NCBI GenBank assembly: GCA_025449535.1
Contig: JANWJF010000001.1
Span: 303,344-367,343 of the forward strand
Length of the DNA: 64,000 nucleotides
Direction of reading: 5' to 3'
Origin: Candidatus Saccharimonadia bacterium
GTDB taxonomy: Bacteria; Patescibacteriota; SICC01
Positions 7,816 to 40,747 of this stretch are shown here, piece after piece (position 1 is the first letter of the stretch; every line of letters starts with the position of its first letter). The translations under genes were made by a program, and so were the position numbers. The notes beneath the pieces are model-generated. The model saw nothing but the letters and a program-made list of their open reading frames with translations. It made no database searches and was not told the DNA's origin.

Positions 7816-8466
7816 TTACTTGCGCGTCAGTTCCTCGTCGGGACGTTCCAGATAGTTCGGCGTACCGGCGGCGTCTTCCGTCCAGACGCGGCCAGCCAGG
7901 TCGTCCTCCTTGGAAAACCGTCCCGGCGTCCCCTTCAACCAGTTCCAGAGGTCCTTCGCCGCAGACGAGACGCTCTTGGTCTCGGTGAACGTCGGCTGGT
8001 GGTCGGCCGGCATGAACATGCCGTTGTCCTGCGGTTCGGGGGCCGGCAGTTCCTCGGGCGCGTTTTCGATCGCCTTGGTGGAGGACTCGCCCGCGATGCC
8101 CGCGGACCCCAGACGCCCACGCAGCTCCTCGAGTCGCTCCGAGACGTGCTCGGCGTCCGCCATCAGCCGATCGTACGTCACCTCGGCGATGAACCCGAGG
8201 TCGCGCGCGACCAGCAGCGAGTACTTCGTCTCTTCCAGCGTCGTGATCGCCTCCGTGATCCGGCTCGAGAACTCGGCCTCGTCCTTGCGGGCGTGTCCGG
8301 CCACGATGCTCGAGGCGACGCCGACGGCCCGCTTGCGCAGGTCCAGTCCCAGCGCCTGCCGCTCGTCCTGCGGAAGCTGGCTGGCCACCTTGTAGACGTC
8401 CAGCGTCAGCCGGTGGGCCAGCTTCCAGGTCTCGACGGCGAATTGGGTGGTCGACGGTTCGGACAT
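7816..8466 (-). CDS. Four-helix-bundle protein (23S rRNA intervening-sequence protein family) with an acidic C-terminal extension.
   Basis: WKLAHRLTLDVYKVASQLP...LRKRAVGVASSIVAGHARKDEAEFSSRITEAITTLEETKYSLLVARDLGFI matches the family. Start trimmed to the ATG at 8466. Confidence 0.6.
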   Translation of the reverse strand: MSEPSTTQFAVETWKLAHRLTLDVYKVASQLPQDERQALGLDLRKRAVGVASSIVAGHARKDEAEFSSRITEAITTLEETKYSLLVARDLGFIAEVTYDRLMADAEHVSERLEELRGRLGSAGIAGESSTKAIENAPEELPAPEPQDNGMFMPADHQPTFTETKSVSSAAKDLWNWLKGTPGRFSKEDDLAGRVWTEDAAGTPNYLERPDEELTRK

Positions 8467-8526
8467 CTGTCCCCGATTGTACATGAGATTCCTACAATCG
8501 AGCACGTTCGGGCCATACACGGGCAA

Positions 8527-8715
8527 TTATTCAGAACTTCTGACGAACGCCGGTAATTCCATGCCCAGTTCGGCAGCGATCTCTTCAAGAGTCCGGTCTT
8601 CCCCGCTCGCGGCTTGTCGCTCCTCAACTGTCCGGATGATAGCCCGGTTCTCCGGTGTATCATCCTCGGGTTTTACAAAGTCGATATCTCCTTCACCTAT
8701 GCTTTCCTCAGGCAT
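8527..8715 (-). CDS. Small acidic protein (62 aa), hypothetical.
   Basis: Perfect SD (AGGAGGTG) 5 nt upstream of the ATG at 8715. High GC3. Confidence 0.45.
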   Translation of the reverse strand: MPEESIGEGDIDFVKPEDDTPENRAIIRTVEERQAASGEDRTLEEIAAELGMELPAFVRSSE

Positions 8716-8778
8716 TTTCACCTCCTAGTGTGAATAACAAGTCAGCATACTCCTATCGGCCGGTTTGCCAAGCGGCCG

Positions 8779-9432
8779 TCAGGGACTGGGAAAGACGACG
8801 ACCTGCGACTCGTTTTCCGGCAGGTCCGAATGCTTCAGCTTGAACGTCTTCTTCTCGAGCTTCCGTACCTTGCCGCCGACCTGCCCCAGGAACTTGTCTA
8901 CCGCGGCCAGCTCCTTCACCTTCAGCTTCGGAACCTGGTAATGCATCGGCACGGTAATCCGCGGTTGGAGCAGCTTCACCACGTCGGCCGCCGCCTTGGC
9001 ATCGATCGTGAAGTGGCCACCGACCGGCACGAACAGCACGTCGACGTCGCCGAGCCGTTCGACGGTGTCCTCGTCGAGGACGTGGCCGAGGTCGCCGAGA
9101 TGCACGAGGTGCATGTCGTCGACATGGAACGAATAGACCGTGTTCCGGCCACGGTCGGCTCCCTGTTTGTCGTCATGGTAGGTCGGGATGCCTTCGATCA
9201 TCACGCCCTTGGACTCGTACTCACCCGGCGTGTCGACCACGTACGGATCGCCGCCCTCGCGACCGGATACCGCCGCGACGTTGGCATGGTCGAAGTGGTC
9301 GTGCGACACGAGCAGCACGTCGGCCTCGAGCTTCGGCTCCTTGAGTCCGATGTCCGCGAACGGGTCGACCGCGACCGTCGCGTCCTTCCCTTTCACTAGG
9401 AAGCAGGATTGTCCGTACCAAGTGATATCCAT
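8779..9432 (-). CDS. Metallo-beta-lactamase-fold metal-dependent hydrolase (UPF0173-like).
   Basis: MDITWYGQSCFLV...VDPF, HxHxDH-type motif (LVSHDHFDHAN) and a C-terminal motif typical of the family. Start trimmed to the ATG at 9432. Confidence 0.75.
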   Translation of the reverse strand: MDITWYGQSCFLVKGKDATVAVDPFADIGLKEPKLEADVLLVSHDHFDHANVAAVSGREGGDPYVVDTPGEYESKGVMIEGIPTYHDDKQGADRGRNTVYSFHVDDMHLVHLGDLGHVLDEDTVERLGDVDVLFVPVGGHFTIDAKAAADVVKLLQPRITVPMHYQVPKLKVKELAAVDKFLGQVGGKVRKLEKKTFKLKHSDLPENESQVVVFPSP

Positions 9433-9524
9433 CAGATTCAGTATACCGTGGCCGCTGGTGACTTTTCTCGTCCGGCGGCCATGAAGGGGAACGTACATGA
9501 TTGCCTGGTGTATCCTTGAGCGGT

Positions 9525-10241
9525 ATGACTTTGACCAGCGCCACCACCCACGTGCTTGCCGGGACCACTCGCCGCAGCGACGGCGATTGGGGCGAACAGC
9601 GCGTCCCCGTCCAGCTCGCCGAGCTGAAGCGGCTGGTGTCCCGCCGGTACGGCGGCGTGCCGCAGCGGATCGTCTGGATGAAGCAGGTCCACGGCGCCCA
9701 GGTGCACCCGATCACCGACGAGGACGGCGAGGTCGAGCCGGGGGACGCACTGATCACGGACCGCCCGGGTGTCCTCCTGACGATCCGGACCGCGGACTGC
9801 GTCCCGGTGTTCCTGGAATCCGAGGACGCGATCGGGATCGTCCACGTCGGCCTGGCCGGCGCCCTCAAGCAGGTCTTCCCGCGGGCCGTCCGGGCGATGC
9901 GCCGCGAGTACAAGGTACGGCCGGAGGAACTGCTGGTCCGGTTCGGTCCGCACATCTGCAGCTCCTGCTACGAGATGTCACCGAACAACCTGGCGCTGCT
10001 CGAGAAGTATCCCGAAGCGAAGCGGTACGCCAGTCCGCGCGGCGACCGGCGGTTCTTCTCACTGATCGACCTACTGGTCTCCCAGGCCGGGGAGCTTGGC
10101 GTGCGGCATCTGGAGGCGGACCCCCGGTGCACGTATCACGACAGCGACCTGTTCTCCGCCCGCCGCGGACATCAGGACAGCCGGCAGCTCTCGTTCGTGA
10201 TGATGACCCGTCCCGGCCAAGGCCAGCCCCCGCATGCTTGA
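9525..10241 (+). CDS. pgeF: YfiH/PgeF (DUF152, polyphenol-oxidase/laccase-domain) family protein.
   Basis: Conserved pattern HGAQVHPI...ADCVPV...IGIVHVGLAG...CYE. Start uncertain (ATG 9525 or TTG 9501). Confidence 0.7.
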   Translation: MTLTSATTHVLAGTTRRSDGDWGEQRVPVQLAELKRLVSRRYGGVPQRIVWMKQVHGAQVHPITDEDGEVEPGDALITDRPGVLLTIRTADCVPVFLESEDAIGIVHVGLAGALKQVFPRAVRAMRREYKVRPEELLVRFGPHICSSCYEMSPNNLALLEKYPEAKRYASPRGDRRFFSLIDLLVSQAGELGVRHLEADPRCTYHDSDLFSARRGHQDSRQLSFVMMTRPGQGQPPHA

Positions 10242-32363: not shown

Positions 32364-35300
32364 TTACAGCGTACCGACGCTGGCGCCGGTGTAGTAGAAC
32401 TGCAGGATCTGGGCGTAGCTCTGTCCGCTCAAGGCGCGACGGTAGGCTCCCCACTGGCTCATGCCGATGCCGTGGCCGAAGCCCTTCCCGTTGAACACGA
32501 AGTTGTTCCCGCTCTTGCTGACGCTGGTCACCTGCGAGGACGGCAGTCCGAGGCGACTGCGGTGGGTATCCGCGGTCAGGGTGTAGTCGTGGTTACCGCA
32601 GCTGCCGGCCAGGCGGACCGTCCGCATTCGGTCGCCCGGGTGCTTGGAGATGATACCGACGCCGGTCACCGTGCAGCCGAAGCCGTAGTTCGAACGGATC
32701 GTCTCGCGCGAGGTAGTGTCCGGCCAGAGATGGTCGGTGTCACCGACCTGCGAGAAGGAGTCGGCCTTGCCGCGGAGATAGCTGATCGGCGAGCCGCCCC
32801 AGACGTCCTCGTTGTCCGCGGTATGACCGGCCGCGTTCGAGCTGTAGAACGCTTGCACCAGCGAGCCGCTGTACTTGACCACCTTGCCGTTGGTGGCGCC
32901 GACCGCCGTGACGTGGTTCGGCTTGGCGGTCTCGTTGTTGTACCCGTTGTAGACCTGGTCCCGGGTATCATCGTAAAGATCGAAGCTGTCCGCACGTGGA
33001 CTTTGGATCTTCCGAGCCGCGTAGGTCCGGGCCGCCGTCACCTGCGCCTTGATCGCCTCTATCGGCCAGCCGTCCGGGACTTCGCCGAGGCCACGCAGGT
33101 ACTCCTCGAGGTTGACCGAGTTCACCAGGTGAGTGCCGGCGCTGCCGGTACGGATCGCCATCGACCCGCGGAAGTAGTCCTGGCTGGCGTTGTCCGCCAG
33201 GTTCGTCACCACGAACCGGTTGCCCGGCGCCTGCTCGGCCGTGAGGATGCAGCAGGAGTTGACCGTCCCGCTCGGCAGGACCGCCTGGTAGTTCGAACCG
33301 TCCTTGCGCAGGGTGAAGTTCGTGGCCGGGGCGACGGTGCCGCGATTGGCCCCGTTGATGTCACGGATGGTGACGGTGTTCGTGCCCCGCATGGTGGCGC
33401 TGGACTGCGCGGTCAAGGCGACATCGATCGGGTTCTCGATCGTGATCGACCAATGGATGCCGATGTCCTTCATCCAGCCGACGCCGTTCACGACCGGCCG
33501 GAAGTACTCCTTGTACGTACCCGGACCGGGGTTGGCGACAATGTCGAACTCGAACTCACCGATCTCGCCCGGTGCCACGCTGGTCTCGCCGCCGACGTTC
33601 TTGGCGGGATCGGTCACGTTGCTCCCCAGCTTCACCCGGTTGGAACTGAGCCAGCCGGCCGCCGTGCCGCCGTCGGAGAAACCGCTGCCGCGGTCCTGCG
33701 GACGGTCGGTCCCTAGCCGGACCGGCGTATCGCCGTCGGACTGCCAAGTGGTATACCCCATGTTCCGCAAGCGGATGAAGAGGGTATCGGTCTCATCCTG
33801 CGACAGATACCGGTAATGCGAGGCCTTGCTCACGTAGTCGTAGTCGTAGGCACGCGTCGGCACCGTCTGCGTCCAGGACAAGCCCAGGTCGTGCTGCCAG
33901 CCGAAGTTCTCGATGACCGAGCTAAAGTATTCGGTGTACTTTCCGCCCTTGGCCGGTGCTTTCAAATCGAACGACCAACGGGCAGTCTCCCCCGGAGCGA
34001 TCGCGTTGCCCGGCGTCACCGTGCCGTCCTCGACCTTACCGACAAACTTGCCGAGCCGATTACGTGACTGCCAGGTCGCGCTGTCGTACCACGCGCTATT
34101 GTGGTCCATCGGCTTGATGGTCCCGATGTTCATGTCATAAGCCGTGTCGTTGCGCCAGGTGGCGGTGCCGATGTTCTTCACGTCCGCCGTGACCGTGCTC
34201 TTCTCTCCCGGGGTAACAACCGAAGGCGGGTTGGTCTTGTCGACCAGCTGTCCGCGGTAGAACCGGCCCGGCACCGTCGTGGTGATGTACTTCGAATGGT
34301 CTTCGAGCCAGGTGACGCCGTCGATCACCGGCTGGAAGTACTCGCGCAGGGTCGCGGTGGAGGTCCGCGGCGGCGAGGTCATCGTGAAGGCGAACCGGGC
34401 GGTCTCCCCGGACTGGATGGTATCGGTCGTCGTGACACTACCGTTACTCTCGACCCGTCCCGTGAAGCTGGTGACGCGGTTCTTGGACTGCCAAGAAGCG
34501 TTGTAGAACGGCGACTTGTGGTCCTTGGGGTGGCTAGTGCCGAGCCGGATCGCGTCCGCACCGGTGTTCGACCAGGGTTCCAGGCCGACGTTCTTGTAAT
34601 CAACGTAGACCGATCGGTCGGTACCGGAGGTCGCGGAAGCGGACGCCGACTGCCGCACCCACTCCGCGGAGTATTCCTTCACCATGGCTTGCGCCCCGTT
34701 GGCGTCCAGCCGGCCATGACCGTAGAGGTTCGTCCGGGACGCGCCGTTCATCCCGGACACCGTGTCCGCGGAACTCCGCAGGACGGTCCGGACCCGCGAC
34801 CAGGAGATGTCCGGATCCAACGCCCGGAGCAGGCCCGCTACGCCGGCCACGTGCGGCGCGGCCAGGGAGGTACCCGATGCCGAGACGTAGCTGGTGTTCC
34901 CGAGCCCCGCGCCACGAACGCTGGAACCGGGAGCGACCAGGTCCAGCTGCGAGCCGCCGTTCGAGTACCCCGCCCGGGCGTCCGAGGATCCGGTCGCGCC
35001 GACGGAGATCACGCTCGGGTTGATCGCCGGGTAGTTAATCGAGTTCGTGTACCCGTCGTTGCCGGACGCCGCCACGAGGATCGTCCCGTCCGCGATCGCC
35101 TCGGTGATGGCCTGGTCGGTCATCGCTTCGGAAGTGAGTCCGTCCGCACCGAGGCTCATGTTCGCTACGTCCGCACCGACGACTCCCGCGTACCGGACGC
35201 CTTCCGCGACATCCGAGAAGAACCCGTTGCCGGCGGAGTTAAGCACCTTGATCGCGATGATCTTCGCGTTCCAGTCGACGCCGGCAACGCCGAGGCCGTT

Positions 35301-36053
35301 GTCCGTCTCAGCGGCAAAGACGGACGCCGTCAGCGTCCCGTGGCCGTTGTCGTCGGTAGGACCGTTCGCGTCGTTCTTGAACACGCTGAGCACGTGGGTC
35401 CCGTTAACGAAGTCCATGCCGTCGTGATCGTCGATATATCCGTTGCCGTCGTCGTCGAGGTTGTTATCGGGAGTCTCGTCGTCGTTCGTCCACATCTTGG
35501 CGGTAAGGTCCTGGTGCGAGGCGTTCACGCCGGTGTCGATGCTGGCGATGGTCGTCGAGCTCGACCCCACGGTACGGTCCCAGGCGGCCGGCGCCTTGAT
35601 CTTAGGCAGGGCCCACTGGTTCGGGTAATGTGGATCGTCCGGGGTACGGGAAGCGGTGACGACGAAGTCCGGCGTCGCGCTGCGGACACCCGGCAGCGCC
35701 GAGACCCGGTCGTCGGCTTGCTCGACCGGTTCGTCGATGGACAGTAAATACGTATCGGGAATAGTAGTCCCGGTCAGGCGGTCGCCGAACTGCTGCTTCG
35801 CCGCTTCATCCCGCAGACGGACGACCAGCCGACCCTTCGCGGCCTTGGTCCGCTTGCCGTTCTTGAGCGTGACCGTCTCCAGCGGCTGGCCGTGTACTTC
35901 GGTCAACTTGTTGATTGCGTCGCCTGCCTGCCGGACGGACGGTTCCTTCTCGACCGGTGCGTCGGGAGCCTTTCCGAGTACCGTGATGGCCGCTATGCCC
36001 ATTAGCCCGACGACGGCCGCGGTGAATACCTTCTGTAGGACGTTTGTTTTCAT
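32364..36053 (-). CDS. Giant secreted multidomain protein (1229 aa): N-terminal subtilisin-like S8 peptidase, about five repeated beta-sandwich domains, and a C-terminal SpoIID/LytB domain.
   Basis: Signal peptide. S8 catalytic Asp/His/Ser motifs: IDTGV, HGTLTASVFAAE, GTSLAAPHVAGVAGL. Repeated segments of about 100 aa. C-terminal SpoIID motifs LEEYLRGLGEVP...AIKAQVTAARTYA...VYNGYNNE...FYSSNAAGHTADNEDVWGG. Confidence 0.85.
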   Translation of the reverse strand: MKTNVLQKVFTAAVVGLMGIAAITVLGKAPDAPVEKEPSVRQAGDAINKLTEVHGQPLETVTLKNGKRTKAAKGRLVVRLRDEAAKQQFGDRLTGTTIPDTYLLSIDEPVEQADDRVSALPGVRSATPDFVVTASRTPDDPHYPNQWALPKIKAPAAWDRTVGSSSTTIASIDTGVNASHQDLTAKMWTNDDETPDNNLDDDGNGYIDDHDGMDFVNGTHVLSVFKNDANGPTDDNGHGTLTASVFAAETDNGLGVAGVDWNAKIIAIKVLNSAGNGFFSDVAEGVRYAGVVGADVANMSLGADGLTSEAMTDQAITEAIADGTILVAASGNDGYTNSINYPAINPSVISVGATGSSDARAGYSNGGSQLDLVAPGSSVRGAGLGNTSYVSASGTSLAAPHVAGVAGLLRALDPDISWSRVRTVLRSSADTVSGMNGASRTNLYGHGRLDANGAQAMVKEYSAEWVRQSASASATSGTDRSVYVDYKNVGLEPWSNTGADAIRLGTSHPKDHKSPFYNASWQSKNRVTSFTGRVESNGSVTTTDTIQSGETARFAFTMTSPPRTSTATLREYFQPVIDGVTWLEDHSKYITTTVPGRFYRGQLVDKTNPPSVVTPGEKSTVTADVKNIGTATWRNDTAYDMNIGTIKPMDHNSAWYDSATWQSRNRLGKFVGKVEDGTVTPGNAIAPGETARWSFDLKAPAKGGKYTEYFSSVIENFGWQHDLGLSWTQTVPTRAYDYDYVSKASHYRYLSQDETDTLFIRLRNMGYTTWQSDGDTPVRLGTDRPQDRGSGFSDGGTAAGWLSSNRVKLGSNVTDPAKNVGGETSVAPGEIGEFEFDIVANPGPGTYKEYFRPVVNGVGWMKDIGIHWSITIENPIDVALTAQSSATMRGTNTVTIRDINGANRGTVAPATNFTLRKDGSNYQAVLPSGTVNSCCILTAEQAPGNRFVVTNLADNASQDYFRGSMAIRTGSAGTHLVNSVNLEEYLRGLGEVPDGWPIEAIKAQVTAARTYAARKIQSPRADSFDLYDDTRDQVYNGYNNETAKPNHVTAVGATNGKVVKYSGSLVQAFYSSNAAGHTADNEDVWGGSPISYLRGKADSFSQVGDTDHLWPDTTSRETIRSNYGFGCTVTGVGIISKHPGDRMRTVRLAGSCGNHDYTLTADTHRSRLGLPSSQVTSVSKSGNNFVFNGKGFGHGIGMSQWGAYRRALSGQSYAQILQFYYTGASVGTL

Positions 36054-36142
36054 GTGTGGAAAATTGCCTTAATATAGCAAAAAATGAACCCTCTGTCAAG
36101 CCCCCAGACGCCCGGGGCGTCTCGTATTGGTATCCTGGTCCC

Positions 36143-36691: not shown

Positions 36692-37402
36692 CTACCGCAA
36701 CCGTCGGCCGACTCGCCTGATGCGTTCAAGCTCGGCGGCTTCCTTGTCCTCCTCGTAGACAGGCTCGCCATCGGGGTCGGGCGCTTCGCTGCAATTCGGG
36801 CAGTACGGTTTTTGTTCCGTGACCACGCGACCCGGTCCGGCCAGGGGCATCGCCTTCAGGCGGACGGGGTGGCGTACTTCCGCGGCGGCGACCATGGTGC
36901 CGCAGTGATGCATCCAACGGGAGGTCTCCGGATCGAACACCGACTCCGCCAGCACCGGATCCTCGGTATCGACGTCATCCGGGGTGCCCTCGAACTCCTT
37001 GTGGACGCTCTGCGCGTCGATCTCCTGGATGCCCAGGATCTCCGAGGCACGGACGCCGACCCTGCGCGTCACTTCGTCACGGTCGGTGGTGGCATCCGCC
37101 GGCTGCTCGACGGTCGGGTCGAAATACCCGTTCGGAGGCATCGGAGCCTGCTCGGCAAAGTCCTCCAGCTCCTCCTCGACGGACGTACCGAGCCGCGAGG
37201 AGAACCGGGCGACCTCTTGTCCGGTCTTCATGACGCAGAACGGGCCGACGTCGCCCGGATTCAGCACGGGACAATCATGCGGGAAGAACCGGCATGGCTC
37301 CCGTTCGTCCATGCGCTCCCGATGCTGGGCCACGGTGTCGACGCCGTCCATGAAGTCCCCTTCACAGACGCTGCCATCCTCGATGAGTTTCTTGTCGCGC
37401 AT
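36692..37402 (-). CDS. Cysteine-rich hypothetical protein (236 aa) with N-terminal C-x21-C-x6-C-x10-C and C-terminal HHCG...CPNC clusters. Probably metal-binding.
   Basis: Cys spacing, acidic central region. Start trimmed to the ATG at 37402. Confidence 0.5.
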   Translation of the reverse strand: MRDKKLIEDGSVCEGDFMDGVDTVAQHRERMDEREPCRFFPHDCPVLNPGDVGPFCVMKTGQEVARFSSRLGTSVEEELEDFAEQAPMPPNGYFDPTVEQPADATTDRDEVTRRVGVRASEILGIQEIDAQSVHKEFEGTPDDVDTEDPVLAESVFDPETSRWMHHCGTMVAAAEVRHPVRLKAMPLAGPGRVVTEQKPYCPNCSEAPDPDGEPVYEEDKEAAELERIRRVGRRLR

Positions 37403-37412
37403 GGCGAACGAG

Positions 37413-37892
37413 TTACGACTCGTACCAGAACGCGTCGGTCCGGCGGATGGTGAACGCGTAGGCGCCGGCCAGCCCGGATACCACGAGCAGCATCCAAAGC
37501 GGCCAGAGCGGCTGCGGCTCCCTTGTCGCACCGGCTACTTCCACCTTGGTCGTAGCGGGATTGACCGTGGCTGGCTTCTTTTCCTTGACTGCCGACTTCT
37601 TCTTTTCAGGCTCGCTCACGGCCTGCTGGTCAGTCTGGGATGCGGATTGTACTTGGCTTGAATTGAAATTCGTTTGGGGCGGTGCTGCTTGAGCATTCTT
37701 TTGTACAGCATGGCTGGTACTACCAGTACTTGGAGGTCGGCCACTGCAGTCAGGAGGACCGTAATACACTGGGTCACCCCCACAGTTCGTCACGAATTGA
37801 ACCGGCTCCTCGGCTTGCGCCGTACCCACGCCGACTACCCCCGCGAGCAGGAACGCGAAAAGGACGGCAGATATGTTTCGGGCTTTCTTCAT
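37413..37892 (-). CDS. Secreted protein (159 aa) with a signal peptide, a Cys-containing N-terminal module and a C-terminal TM anchor.
   Basis: Signal peptide MKKARNISAVLFAFLLAGVVGVGTAQA. C-terminal hydrophobic segment plus RRTD. Immediately upstream of the Cys-rich gene. Confidence 0.55.
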   Translation of the reverse strand: MKKARNISAVLFAFLLAGVVGVGTAQAEEPVQFVTNCGGDPVYYGPPDCSGRPPSTGSTSHAVQKNAQAAPPQTNFNSSQVQSASQTDQQAVSEPEKKKSAVKEKKPATVNPATTKVEVAGATREPQPLWPLWMLLVVSGLAGAYAFTIRRTDAFWYES

Positions 37893-37965
37893 CTGTCGGT
37901 CGTCATCAGGCCATTTATGCCTGAGCAATGGGACTATACGCTCGTGTTCACGCGATTGCAAGGGA

Positions 37966-38553
37966 CTATTCGACGGGTACCGCGCGCACTACGAACCGCT
38001 TAGAGTCCAACCAGCCCGAGCAGGTGTAGACCGTCAGGACTTCCTTCTTGGTCGGCGCCAGGACGCCCACCTGGTCGGTCGTCACTTCCTTCAGGCTCGT
38101 AATCCGGTACTCGTGCTTCCGACCGCCCTTGGTCGTGAGTACGACACGCTCGTTCCCCTCCAGGCCGAGGAGCGGCCCGAAGACGTCCTTCGTGTTGTGT
38201 CCGTAGACGATGATGTTGCCCTTCTCGTCCGGTTTGGCGGAACCGTTCATGTAAGAGCCGGCGTGCTTGGCGACGGTCCACTCCCCGTTCTCGTACTTCT
38301 GCGGTTCGAGCTTCTCGTCCACCACGCCAGAAATCCGCAGTCGGACCGGTCGGGTCGAATCAGTCGATTCCGCGGCTACCGGCGCTGCCACTCTAGGCTG
38401 GAGCGCTCGGTCATAATAATAGTTGTTAGCGCCGCTATAGAGCAGTAGCGCCAAACCGACGACGATCAGCACTATCGGCCAGTGCCGCAGGAAGAACTTC
38501 GGAGCTGAATCCAAAGAGCGTCCTTTGCGTCGCGAGCGGGAACGCTTCGCCAT
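37966..38553 (-). CDS. Sortase (transpeptidase), class E-like.
   Basis: N-terminal TM anchor, catalytic His (IIVYGHN), TLxTC-type active-site Cys (LTVYTCSG) and a conserved Arg. Start trimmed to the ATG at 38553. Confidence 0.8.
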   Translation of the reverse strand: MAKRSRSRRKGRSLDSAPKFFLRHWPIVLIVVGLALLLYSGANNYYYDRALQPRVAAPVAAESTDSTRPVRLRISGVVDEKLEPQKYENGEWTVAKHAGSYMNGSAKPDEKGNIIVYGHNTKDVFGPLLGLEGNERVVLTTKGGRKHEYRITSLKEVTTDQVGVLAPTKKEVLTVYTCSGWLDSKRFVVRAVPVE

Positions 38554-38557
38554 GGAC

Positions 38558-39397
38558 TCAGTTCCGGAGTCGCCGTCGCGTGGCTGCGTACGCGCCGATG
38601 GAAACCAGCGTGGTGCCCAGACCGGCCAGCGAACCAAGTCCCGTGTCCGCAAAGCTGAGCGGGACAATGCTGCCGCCCGTGGCCGGGTCTGACGGATCAC
38701 TCACGCTTCCTTGGGAGTTCACGCCCGGATCATCGGTCGGATCGGGACTCCCTTGGGGATCCACGGTCGGGTCGGGATCAGGACTTCCCTGCGGGTCTGC
38801 GGTGGGATCCGGAGTCGGGGTGGGATCAGGACTTCCCTGCGGGTCTGCGGTCGGGTCAGGGGTAGGAGTGTCCGAGGGGGTTTCGGTGGGGGTCGGGGTC
38901 GGTTCCGGAGTCGGGGTACTTTCCACCTCTACCGTAGGAGTCGGGGTGGGGGTTTCGGTTGGAGTAGGAGTGTCGCTCGGTGTAGGCGTGGCAGAGGGAG
39001 TCGGGGTCGCAGAGGGACTCGGCGTGGTATAGATCAGGCAGTAGTGGATGTGGCTCAGCGCAGGAACCTGATTGCCACCATTCAGGGGAGTCACGCCAAT
39101 ACCAACCAAATAGTCGTACGTAGCTCCATTACCCCCTCCGTACAACTCGACCGTGCCGCTGATTCCGTCCTCCACGTTCCAAACCACTGTACCGGAGCCG
39201 GCCGGGGTCTCAGTGAACGTTATCGTAACCCCGTTGATTACTATCGAACCGTCGCCGCTCTCGGCCACCTTCGCGCAGCCGGGCCGGGTCTCGTTGTGGG
39301 CAAACGCGATCGTTCCAAACATTGTCGCCCCTACAAACACGGCGGCTGCCAGCAAGGCAGGCACCAACCGCTTTCGATATATCGCTCGTTCGCTCAT
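38558..39397 (-). CDS. Sortase substrate: secreted protein with a Thr/Pro-rich stalk and a C-terminal sorting signal (LSFADTG, then a hydrophobic helix, then RRRLRN).
   Basis: Signal peptide. About 90 aa of (TP)n repeats. The LAxTG-like FADTG motif precedes a TM segment and a cationic tail. Confidence 0.75.
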   Translation of the reverse strand: MSERAIYRKRLVPALLAAAVFVGATMFGTIAFAHNETRPGCAKVAESGDGSIVINGVTITFTETPAGSGTVVWNVEDGISGTVELYGGGNGATYDYLVGIGVTPLNGGNQVPALSHIHYCLIYTTPSPSATPTPSATPTPSDTPTPTETPTPTPTVEVESTPTPEPTPTPTETPSDTPTPDPTADPQGSPDPTPTPDPTADPQGSPDPDPTVDPQGSPDPTDDPGVNSQGSVSDPSDPATGGSIVPLSFADTGLGSLAGLGTTLVSIGAYAATRRRLRN

Positions 39398-39435
39398 AAA
39401 AATAAAAAACCGCCCAACGACATTCTTTTGGGCGA
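39398..39435 (-). terminator. Intrinsic terminator (CGCCCAA...TTGGGCG stem followed by a U-tract) downstream of the 39521..39868 gene.
   Basis: 7-bp GC-rich stem with a T-run on the minus strand (complement of AAAATAAAAAA). Confidence 0.5.
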
Positions 39436-39520
39436 CTTCCTTATTGCTCAGGTATTCTGTCCCCGATACGGCTGATTGTCAACAGATACCGTCACAAAGG
39501 GATTTTGAATCATTGGCCGC

Positions 39521-40012: not shown

Positions 40013-40747
40013 TCAGGATTCCTGCAGGGCGGTATCCGGGCCCTCGGCTTCGTCCCCAGGCTCCAGCCACTTCGCGATCTGATCGTCATGCCTGGCGGTG
40101 CATTTGAACGCGTCCACCGCCAAGCGGCGGCTGATGCTGGGATGGACCCCGCCGGTCCGCTCCAGCGCGGCGATGACTCGGTGATAATCGAGCAGACTGG
40201 AGACCGGAACCACGCATTCGTGGTTCTTGCCGGCCGCCCGCAGCATCGCGGACCCGCCGATATCGATCTTCGCGGTCGGGTCACCGTCTTCTTGGTACTG
40301 GACGTGCTGCTCGAACGGGTACAGGTGGACGCAGACCAAGTCGATCGGCTCGATGCCCGCCTCCGCCAGTTCCCGCATATGGCCGGGGTCGTCGCGGTCC
40401 GCGAGGATGCCGATGTGGATGCTCGGATGCAGCGTCTTTACCCGGCCGTCGAGGGTCTCCGTGAACCCGATGACCTCCTCCAGGGACTTCACGGGGATTC
40501 CCGCCGCCTGCAAGTCCCGACAGGTGCCCCGCGTGGCAATTAACTCAGCGCCGTGGCGGACCAGATCACGGGCGAACTGCAGGAACGCCTCGTCCCGCTC
40601 GGAGACGCTGAGCAAAGCACGCTGGACCGGCAACTCAGAGCCATCCTTTTCGGGAATCTCCGGCTGCTCCTCGGTCGGCACCTCCGGCTCTTCCACACCG
40701 GGCCGATCGACGACGGGAACTGGCTGTCTGGATCCGTTCATGACCAA
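40013..40747 (-). CDS. PurH-like protein containing only the N-terminal MGS-like IMP cyclohydrolase domain, with an acidic Pro/Glu-rich N-terminal extension. No AICAR transformylase domain.
   Basis: RALLSVSERDEAFLQFARDLVRHGAELIATRGTCRDLQAAGIPV...TLDGRVKTLHPSIHIGILADRD matches the PurH N-domain. The ORF ends after the linker, at about half the length of bifunctional PurH. Confidence 0.65.
   Translation of the reverse strand: MVMNGSRQPVPVVDRPGVEEPEVPTEEQPEIPEKDGSELPVQRALLSVSERDEAFLQFARDLVRHGAELIATRGTCRDLQAAGIPVKSLEEVIGFTETLDGRVKTLHPSIHIGILADRDDPGHMRELAEAGIEPIDLVCVHLYPFEQHVQYQEDGDPTAKIDIGGSAMLRAAGKNHECVVPVSSLLDYHRVIAALERTGGVHPSISRRLAVDAFKCTARHDDQIAKWLEPGDEAEGPDTALQES

Follow-up and report, generated by a model that had tools for sequence, protein, structure and literature searches.

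A Probable Two-Gene Substrate–Sortase Unit with an F-A-D-T-G Sorting Signal in an Uncultured Patescibacteria Genome

Introduction

Which protein does a lone sortase serve in the genome of an uncultured, ultra-small bacterium of the Patescibacteria (the candidate phyla radiation, CPR), and which of the surrounding genes belong with it? The question is raised by a 64-kb stretch of DNA from a Candidatus Saccharimonadia bacterium (contig JANWJF010000001.1), referred to below as the window, and in particular by four co-directional open reading frames (ORFs) at 36692..39397. A first-pass annotation had read these ORFs as a four-gene module, comprising a Cys-rich companion protein, a secreted anchored protein, a class-E-like housekeeping sortase and a surface protein with an atypical F-A-D-T-G sorting signal, closed by an intrinsic terminator and lying right next to the gene for a giant S8-SpoIID protein. 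Here we argue that the locus is probably a smaller, two-gene unit, in which the gene for a secreted surface protein is followed by that for a dedicated membrane-anchored sortase. The loci of relatives are labeled L001–L080, P0027 is an orthologue of the substrate, and L084 and L085 are the window's own genome in public records.

The Substrate and Sortase Genes

All four ORFs lie on the minus strand, and transcription runs from high to low coordinates through the substrate gene, the sortase gene, a gene for a small anchored protein (gene 3) and a gene for a protein with seven Cys (gene 4). The co-directionality noticed in the first-pass annotation is therefore real, while its reading direction is reversed, with the substrate coming first. 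The substrate stop codon and the sortase ATG are separated by 4 nt. The window contains one sortase and one ORF with a substrate-type C-terminus, no other ORF in it combining FADTG or LAxTG with a transmembrane (TM) segment and a basic tail, and the core unit conserved in relatives consists of the substrate and the sortase only.

Judged by its sequence and its structural model, the enzyme is a genuine sortase. It matches PF04203 (MEROPS C60) at 70.4 bits against a gathering threshold of 26.6 (E 1.5e-19), and carries the motifs YGHN, LTVYTCSG and RFVVRA; all of the 26 homologues that were aligned keep the His, the Cys and the Arg. The AF2 model built on this alignment (mean predicted local distance difference test score, pLDDT, 85) consists of an N-terminal TM helix at residues 18–49 and a beta-barrel, and a Foldseek search against solved sortases returned a probability of 1.0, with 108 matches at E <= 0.001. 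The ORF opens at GTG 38700, and we set the start at ATG 38553 (MAKRSR...) because the homologues begin at the equivalent position. In the public gene calls of L084 and L085 three genes are shortened (8081-8845, 9078-9437, 9784-9990): the substrate is called from Met26 and so loses its signal peptide, gene 3 is called at only 68 amino acids (aa), and the Joint Genome Institute (JGI) call of the sortase, from an internal start, is 119 aa. Homologue alignments favor the longer versions of substrate, sortase and gene 3 over these calls.

The substrate begins with MSERAI, a start that is kept in L001, and its N-terminal head domain is lineage-restricted. Orthologue alignment shows Cys C41 and C120, near the two ends of the domain, and Lys K43 to be invariant; this Lys, in the sequence C-A-K-V, is the only one of the mature window protein. 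A word-indexed homologue search with the head domain gave no match, and an exhaustive search of 1.84 billion representatives gave one orthologue and three weak matches to repeat proteins (two PKD, one ankyrin). An AF2 model from two sequences (pLDDT 60) has seven strands and is all-beta, and Foldseek with this low-confidence model found no match at E <= 0.001. The linker that follows is dominated in its last 128 mature residues by Pro (37, 29%) and Thr (28, 22%), along with 16 Asp and 15 Ser, and P0027 matches the Pfam PT repeat. The C-terminus reads ...PLSFADTG-LGSLAGLGTTLVSIGAYAAT-RRRLRN, a tripartite arrangement of FADTG, 20 hydrophobic residues and RRRLRN, so that the Thr/Pro stalk and the terminal signal described in the first-pass annotation are both confirmed from the sequence. 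The orthologues P0027, L001, L002 and L003 share the N-domain and (S/K)FADTG, and across five orthologues FADTG is invariant while the flanking linker diverges. In the L002 orthologue two SdrD_B/SpaA domains are inserted, and there is a weak match to a major-pilin model; domains of the SdrD_B/SpaA type are a hallmark of sortase-anchored proteins.

A Sorting Signal Shared across the Family

Homologues of the sortase come from Patescibacteria. One genome per species was scanned for related sortases, which gave 80 loci from Saccharibacteria, Woesebacteria, Gottesmanbacteria, Levybacteria, Pacebacteria and unnamed Patescibacteria, 76 of them with upstream sequence. Many of the metagenome-assembled genomes (MAGs) among L006–L080 that contain the sortase–substrate pair are titled "uncultured Pseudomonadales" or "Gammaproteobacteria", and one is titled Bathyarchaeia. 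These titles are probably taxonomic mislabels of Patescibacteria bins, and we read the first two as errors because the sortase, the substrate and their synteny match the Patescibacteria loci.

The product of the upstream ORF in these loci almost always closes with a pentapeptide followed by a hydrophobic stretch and a tail of Lys and Arg. A strict pattern, [LFYM]AxTG within the last 50 aa, is present in 55 of the 76 loci on the ORF whose end lies directly before the sortase; among the other six-frame ORFs, which served as the control, it occurs in 11 of 2,895. Several of these eleven (e.g., in L006, L011, L034 and L045) share the motif, the hydrophobic stretch and the basic tail, and by their sequence look like extra substrates. 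From this difference in frequency it follows that FADTG is very likely the sorting signal cognate to the window's clade, and the sequence comparison lends good support to the pairing of enzyme and signal. A logo of 56 signals has Leu (24), Tyr (14), Phe (11) or Met (7) at P4, Ala at P3 in 53, a variable P2, Thr at P1 in all 56 and Gly at P1' in 55; its extraction was biased toward A, T and G at those positions, and the test free of this bias is the strict-pattern control. Phe is found at P4 not only in the window's own clade (L001–L004, P0027) but also in L007, L017, L025/L026, L029, L045 and L047, which include MAGs titled Woesebacteria and Saccharibacteria. The signal was correctly described as atypical when set against LPXTG; within its enzyme family it is, to go by these alignments, a normal variant, LAxTG-like with a relaxed hydrophobic or aromatic P4.

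The pairing extends to substrates of quite different build. Microgenomates upstream substrates carry other heads, with weak sub-threshold matches to Ig-like and carboxypeptidase-regulatory-like domains in some and collagen repeats in one. In the Microgenomates-type loci (L005–L074) a (Q/E)VLGA(S/T)T stretch, often duplicated (e.g., GQVLGASTEGQVLGATTYAETG), stands before the pentapeptide, and a pair of acidic residues before the hydrophobic segment; we know of no conservation upstream of P5 in classical sortase signals. Ten related substrates were compared with curated anchor models, and only that of L022 gave a match, sub-threshold, to PF00746 (17.8 bits against 20). It is probable that the failure of these models on such substrates explains why annotation is lacking.

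The Class of the Enzyme

The first-pass annotation had called the sortase class-E-like and housekeeping-type. The NCBIfam class models have cut-offs of 140–166 bits, and all 26 family members fall below every one of them. The window enzyme itself reaches 36–39 bits with the class D models (NF033746 and NF058671, cut-offs 165 and 140), 31.3 with class E (NF033747, cut-off 160; best E-value among the 26 members 5e-10), 30 with class GN, 26 with class F and 24.4 with class C (NF033745, cut-off 160). Foldseek against the PDB places class C first (E 7.5e-10) and classes A, D and E at 1e-8 to 1e-7, with a TM-score of ~0.55 throughout, and thus confirms the fold without separating the classes. No class C lid motif, DP(W/F/Y), stands in the stretch from the TM helix to the first strand, and the protein ends nine residues past the catalytic Arg, with no C-terminal TM segment. 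Since every class model is missed, Foldseek is unable to separate the classes, and the class C lid and C-terminal TM segment are lacking, we treat the enzyme, on its sequence features, as lying outside the curated classes A–F, in a CPR-wide sortase clade. The housekeeping or class E assignment is accordingly not supported by the enzyme sequence, and the likeness to class E is retained for the type of signal, with its Ala at P3.

The likeness to the class E enzymes of Actinobacteria, represented by Streptomyces coelicolor SrtE1 and Thermobifida fusca SrtE, goes somewhat further. The two share Ala at P3 and Thr-Gly at P1/P1' of the signal, and in both the enzyme is held in the membrane by its N-terminal end, with a basic tail on the cytoplasmic side. 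Both also come from GC-rich genomes, and their substrates have linkers of Pro and Thr and hydrophobic segments rich in Gly and Ala. Class E enzymes have many substrates at scattered sites, whereas the window enzyme has one adjacent substrate, and the P4 of its family is Leu, Tyr, Phe or Met and not Leu alone. The LAxTG signal of class E is therefore present in relaxed form only, with Ala at P3 in 53 and Thr-Gly in 55 of the 56 signals and Leu at P4 in just 24. A conserved Tyr of the beta3/beta4 loop is a further class E feature (S3 subsite; PMC5148588). In the CPR family one column, within ...S(Y/H)(L/M/V)xxSAxPGExGN, is Tyr or His, and by HMMER alignment, as distinct from structural superposition, this column lies one residue before the Phe of Clostridium perfringens SrtD (CpSrtD) that is equated with the class E Tyr; a search of solved structures with a 54-aa fragment, aimed at an alignment with SrtE, returned noise only.

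In sequence the enzyme comes nearest to class D (CpSrtD and Bacillus SrtD). CpSrtD (4d70) is its best match in a profile search of solved structures (53 bits), ahead of chains 9m5j and 9m5i (labeled T. fusca SrtE in Foldseek and deposited as "Peptidase C60, sortase A and B") at ~33 bits, and class D also gives the best NCBIfam score. Class D enzymes are, like the window enzyme, small and have few substrates. The scores nevertheless stay far below the class D cut-offs and the signal differs, being xAxTG (FADTG in the window) against LPxTA(TN); moreover, CpSrtD does not cleave LAETG (PMC5148588).

Proposed Mechanism and Alternative Readings

In the mechanism that we propose, the precursor would be exported by Sec and then retained in the membrane by its C-terminal hydrophobic segment and the RRRLRN tail. 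The sortase, with Cys178, His119 and Arg186, would cut F-A-D-T/G past Thr252 to form a thioacyl intermediate and pass the protein on to the amine of a peptidoglycan precursor. The outcome would be a disulfide-clamped beta domain of ~90 aa on a Pro/Thr stalk of ~125 aa. We infer the nucleophile and the cleavage site, and by analogy with known sortases attachment to the cell wall seems a better guess than attachment elsewhere.

Several points weigh against this reading. PF00746 and TIGR01167 do not match the substrate C-terminus, the hydrophobic segment is rich in Gly, Ala, Ser and Thr and only moderately hydrophobic, and the 64 kb of the window show just one substrate. Finally, to our knowledge neither sortase activity nor wall anchoring has been experimentally proven in any CPR bacterium.

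The strict one-substrate, one-sortase synteny resembles that of pilin–sortase clusters, and this brings up a different outcome, in which a class C-like polymerase joins copies of the single substrate into a covalent fiber or pilus, with K43 or the N-terminus of the mature protein as nucleophile, either in place of wall anchoring or ahead of it. The class C structures at the head of the Foldseek list, the invariant sole Lys of the mature substrate, and the SpaA/SdrD_B domains and weak major-pilin match of the L002 orthologue speak in the same direction. Nevertheless, the class A, D and E structures are near-equal to class C in that search, the class C model is missed by a wide margin, and the enzyme has neither the lid nor the C-terminal TM segment of class C pilus sortases. 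The substrate lacks a YPKN-type pilin motif and an E-box, and the solved pili of one cultured Saccharibacterium are assembled by donor-strand exchange, with no sortase (10.64898/2026.03.03.709456). We therefore regard polymerization as improbable, and the enzyme does not group with the pilus-specific class C; such a grouping was an outcome that the first-pass annotation had named as telling against itself.

It is harder still to sustain the four-gene module, with genes 3 and 4 as functional companions of a class E housekeeping sortase and a terminator at its end. The four ORFs are closely spaced as well as co-directional, with 8 nt between the gene 3 stop and the gene 4 ATG; homologues of gene 3 lie less than 2 kb from the sortase in L002–L004; and Ala at P3 is as in the class E signal LAxTG (PMC5148588). 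The homologues of gene 4, however, stand between clpB and radA or after the gene for the CCA-adding enzyme, with no sortase nearby, and its product has no signal peptide. Gene 3 has no tblastn match in L001, where no such ORF follows the sortase and a membrane protein is found instead, and in L003 a sigma-70 gene intervenes between the sortase and the gene 3 homologue. With the class E model missed and the hairpin lying 5' of the first gene, a module of this extent appears highly improbable; gene 4 is found elsewhere in relatives, gene 3 is loosely linked to the sortase, and the substrate and sortase remain as the unit.

That the substrate C-terminus is merely a tail anchor with a chance FADTG, the sortase serving other proteins, would suit the silence of the curated anchor models on the substrate but is scarcely credible. 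In 55 of 76 loci the motif keeps a constant distance to the hydrophobic segment and sits without exception on the sortase-adjacent gene, and in orthologues it is invariant despite the diverging linker.

Promoter, Leader and Neighboring Genes

The features of the locus are collected in Table 1.

Table 1. Predicted features of the substrate–sortase locus and its neighbors, with positions in the window.
Feature	Position	Strand	Description
Sortase substrate gene	38558..39397	-	279 aa; signal peptide, small beta domain, Pro/Thr linker, C-terminal sorting signal
Signal peptide	39299..39397	-	Residues 1-33, MSERAIYRKRLVPALLAAAVFVGATMFGTIAFA followed by HNE; predicted cleavage between AFA and HNE; basic n-region, hydrophobic core and AxA read from sequence
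N-terminal globular domain	39035..39298	-	Residues 34-121 (~90 aa); predicted all-beta, lineage-restricted
Pro/Thr/Asp/Ser-rich linker ("stalk")	38660..39034	-	Residues 122-246
Sorting pentapeptide F-A-D-T-G	38639..38653	-	Residues 249-253; predicted cleavage T252/G253
Hydrophobic segment LGSLAGLGTTLVSIGAYAAT and basic tail RRRLRN	38561..38638	-	Remainder of the sorting signal
CPR-type sortase gene	37966..38553	-	195 aa; basic N-tail, one TM helix, catalytic domain
Sortase triad	His119 38199..38197; Cys178 38022..38020; Arg186 37998..37996	-	
Promoter-like site	39454..39482	-	TTGACA, 17 nt, CAGAAT; 10/12 matches; upstream of the substrate gene
5' leader hairpin	~39400..39444	-	A-tract, GC stem CGCCCAA/UUGGGCG, U-tract; ends 3 nt before the substrate ATG
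Gene 3	37413..37892	-	159-aa secreted protein; CxnC motif, polar linker, C-terminal TM anchor; no sortase motif; outside the conserved core
Gene 4	36692..37402	-	236 aa, acidic, no signal peptide, 7 invariant Cys; outside the module

The intrinsic terminator of the first-pass annotation corresponds to a real structure, with the A-tract, GC hairpin and U-tract of such an element and a folding energy of -16.7 kcal/mol (z = -3.4). As it lies directly 5' of the substrate ATG, it cannot be the terminator of a module that ends downstream. Hairpins occupy the equivalent position in L001, L002 and L003 (z = -3.1 to -4.3), with stems that differ in sequence and folds that are alike. The leaders span 39400-39482 (-) in the window, 1758-1843 in L001, 4461-4567 in L002 and 5053-5143 in L003, and each runs from a -35 box through a hairpin and its U-tract to the start codon, without a Shine-Dalgarno sequence between hairpin and start codon. 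The -35 box of the substrate promoter and the flanking TTTGTGAC are kept in relatives: the arrangement TTTGTGAC..TTGAC(A/G) also precedes the orthologous genes of L002 and L003, and a TTGACA box precedes that of L001. A -10-like hexamer follows 17–18 nt past the -35 box in the window and in all three relatives. On the strength of this shared layout of promoter, hairpin and start, the hairpin belongs to the 5' leader of the substrate mRNA as a conserved element, with a possible role as an attenuator or as an mRNA-stabilizing 5' hairpin. A separate terminator for the gene preceding the substrate is present in L001. An Rfam scan of the window found no known RNA family over the leader, and two tRNAs only.

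Downstream of the pair, gene 3 is indeed the secreted, C-terminally anchored protein that the first-pass annotation had described. Its N-terminal 55 aa, comprising the signal peptide and the CxnC motif, are kept in L002–L004. A link of gene 3 to the CPR Pam pilus, considered for a C-terminal TM segment like that of PamC/D, was rejected, because Pam pili are assembled independently of a sortase and the comparison showed no homology.

Gene 4, called Cys-rich in the first-pass annotation, encodes 7 Cys in 236 aa, and the companion role assigned to it is not supported. Its invariant residues are C13, C37, C44, C56, H165, C167, H178, C201 and C204, it matches no Pfam or NCBIfam model, and it is lineage-restricted, with only five homologues at 55–62% identity. 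A secreted, disulfide-rich companion is ruled out by the missing signal peptide and the other contexts in relatives, and to judge by its sequence the product is probably a cytoplasmic metal- (zinc-) binding protein that is adjacent to the pair by accident. No terminator-like site was found 3' of gene 4, and a convergent plus-strand gene ends 6 nt from it.

Beyond this convergent gene, which two independent source annotations support, the gene at 32364-36053 (-) encodes a secreted protein of 1,229 aa in which a subtilase S8 domain is fused to Ig-like (N_BRCA1_IG/CARDB) repeats and, at the C-terminus, to a SpoIID/LytB domain. It has a strong promoter-like site of its own (TTGACA-17-TATATT with TG, 36099..36071) and is transcribed apart from the sortase pair; with this site and the convergent gene in between, a functional link between the two loci is not borne out. 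On the other side, at 40013-40747 (-), a stand-alone protein of 244 aa matches PurH (NCBIfam PRK00881) in its N-terminal MGS/IMP-cyclohydrolase part alone (positions 4-201 of 510), and the 5-aminoimidazole-4-carboxamide ribonucleotide (AICAR) formyltransferase part is absent from this ORF. In L001, the closest genomic relative, the gene preceding the substrate (1148-1654) encodes a secreted protein whose C-terminal region is, by eye, Rpf/transglycosylase-like (QRESGGDYRAQNPNSSASGAYQ..), which suggests that wall-remodeling genes are neighbors of the pair there.

Relation to Known CPR Sortases and Significance

Sortases as such are known from CPR bacteria, over half of whose genomes carry a sortase family that is near-ubiquitous in Microgenomates (PMC6744442). 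This PF04203 family, fam000526 (Meheust et al., 2019; PMC6744442), has the same distribution as the 80 loci described here, and from taxonomy and Pfam the window sortase is almost certainly a member of it. The paper gives presence or absence only (PMC6744442). A full-text search, the coverage of which was incomplete, found no description in the literature of the CPR sorting signal, of the substrate–sortase pair or of a place outside classes A–F, and it is these three, with no prior description found, that appear to be new here.

A bolder proposal can be built on the same material. The CPR sortase clade would then be a distinct seventh class that co-evolves with one dedicated, closely adjacent substrate and reads an extended signal, VLGAsT-[LYFM]AxTG in Microgenomates and P(L/I)(S/K)FADTG in the present lineage, while the substrate would build the main wall-spanning or covalently polymerized fiber, presenting its variable head domain to the hosts of these ultra-small episymbionts. 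We put this forward as a speculation that is improbable on present evidence.

Taken alone, the window contributes an ordinary sortase–substrate pair with corrected boundaries. Its wider interest is that sortases are among the few Gram-positive-type envelope enzymes enriched in CPR bacteria, and that the proteins they sort are undescribed in the literature we found; scans based on LPXTG, together with the curated anchor models, miss the CPR substrates. A simple rule, a gene just upstream of the sortase whose product ends in [LYFM]AxTG, would allow the annotation of CPR surface proteins now labeled hypothetical. The natural P4-variant signals, each paired with its enzyme, could aid the understanding or the engineering of sortase specificity. 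Because the head domains are diverse and lineage-specific, they are candidates for a role in host contact or in the envelope of bacteria that spend their lives attached to other cells.

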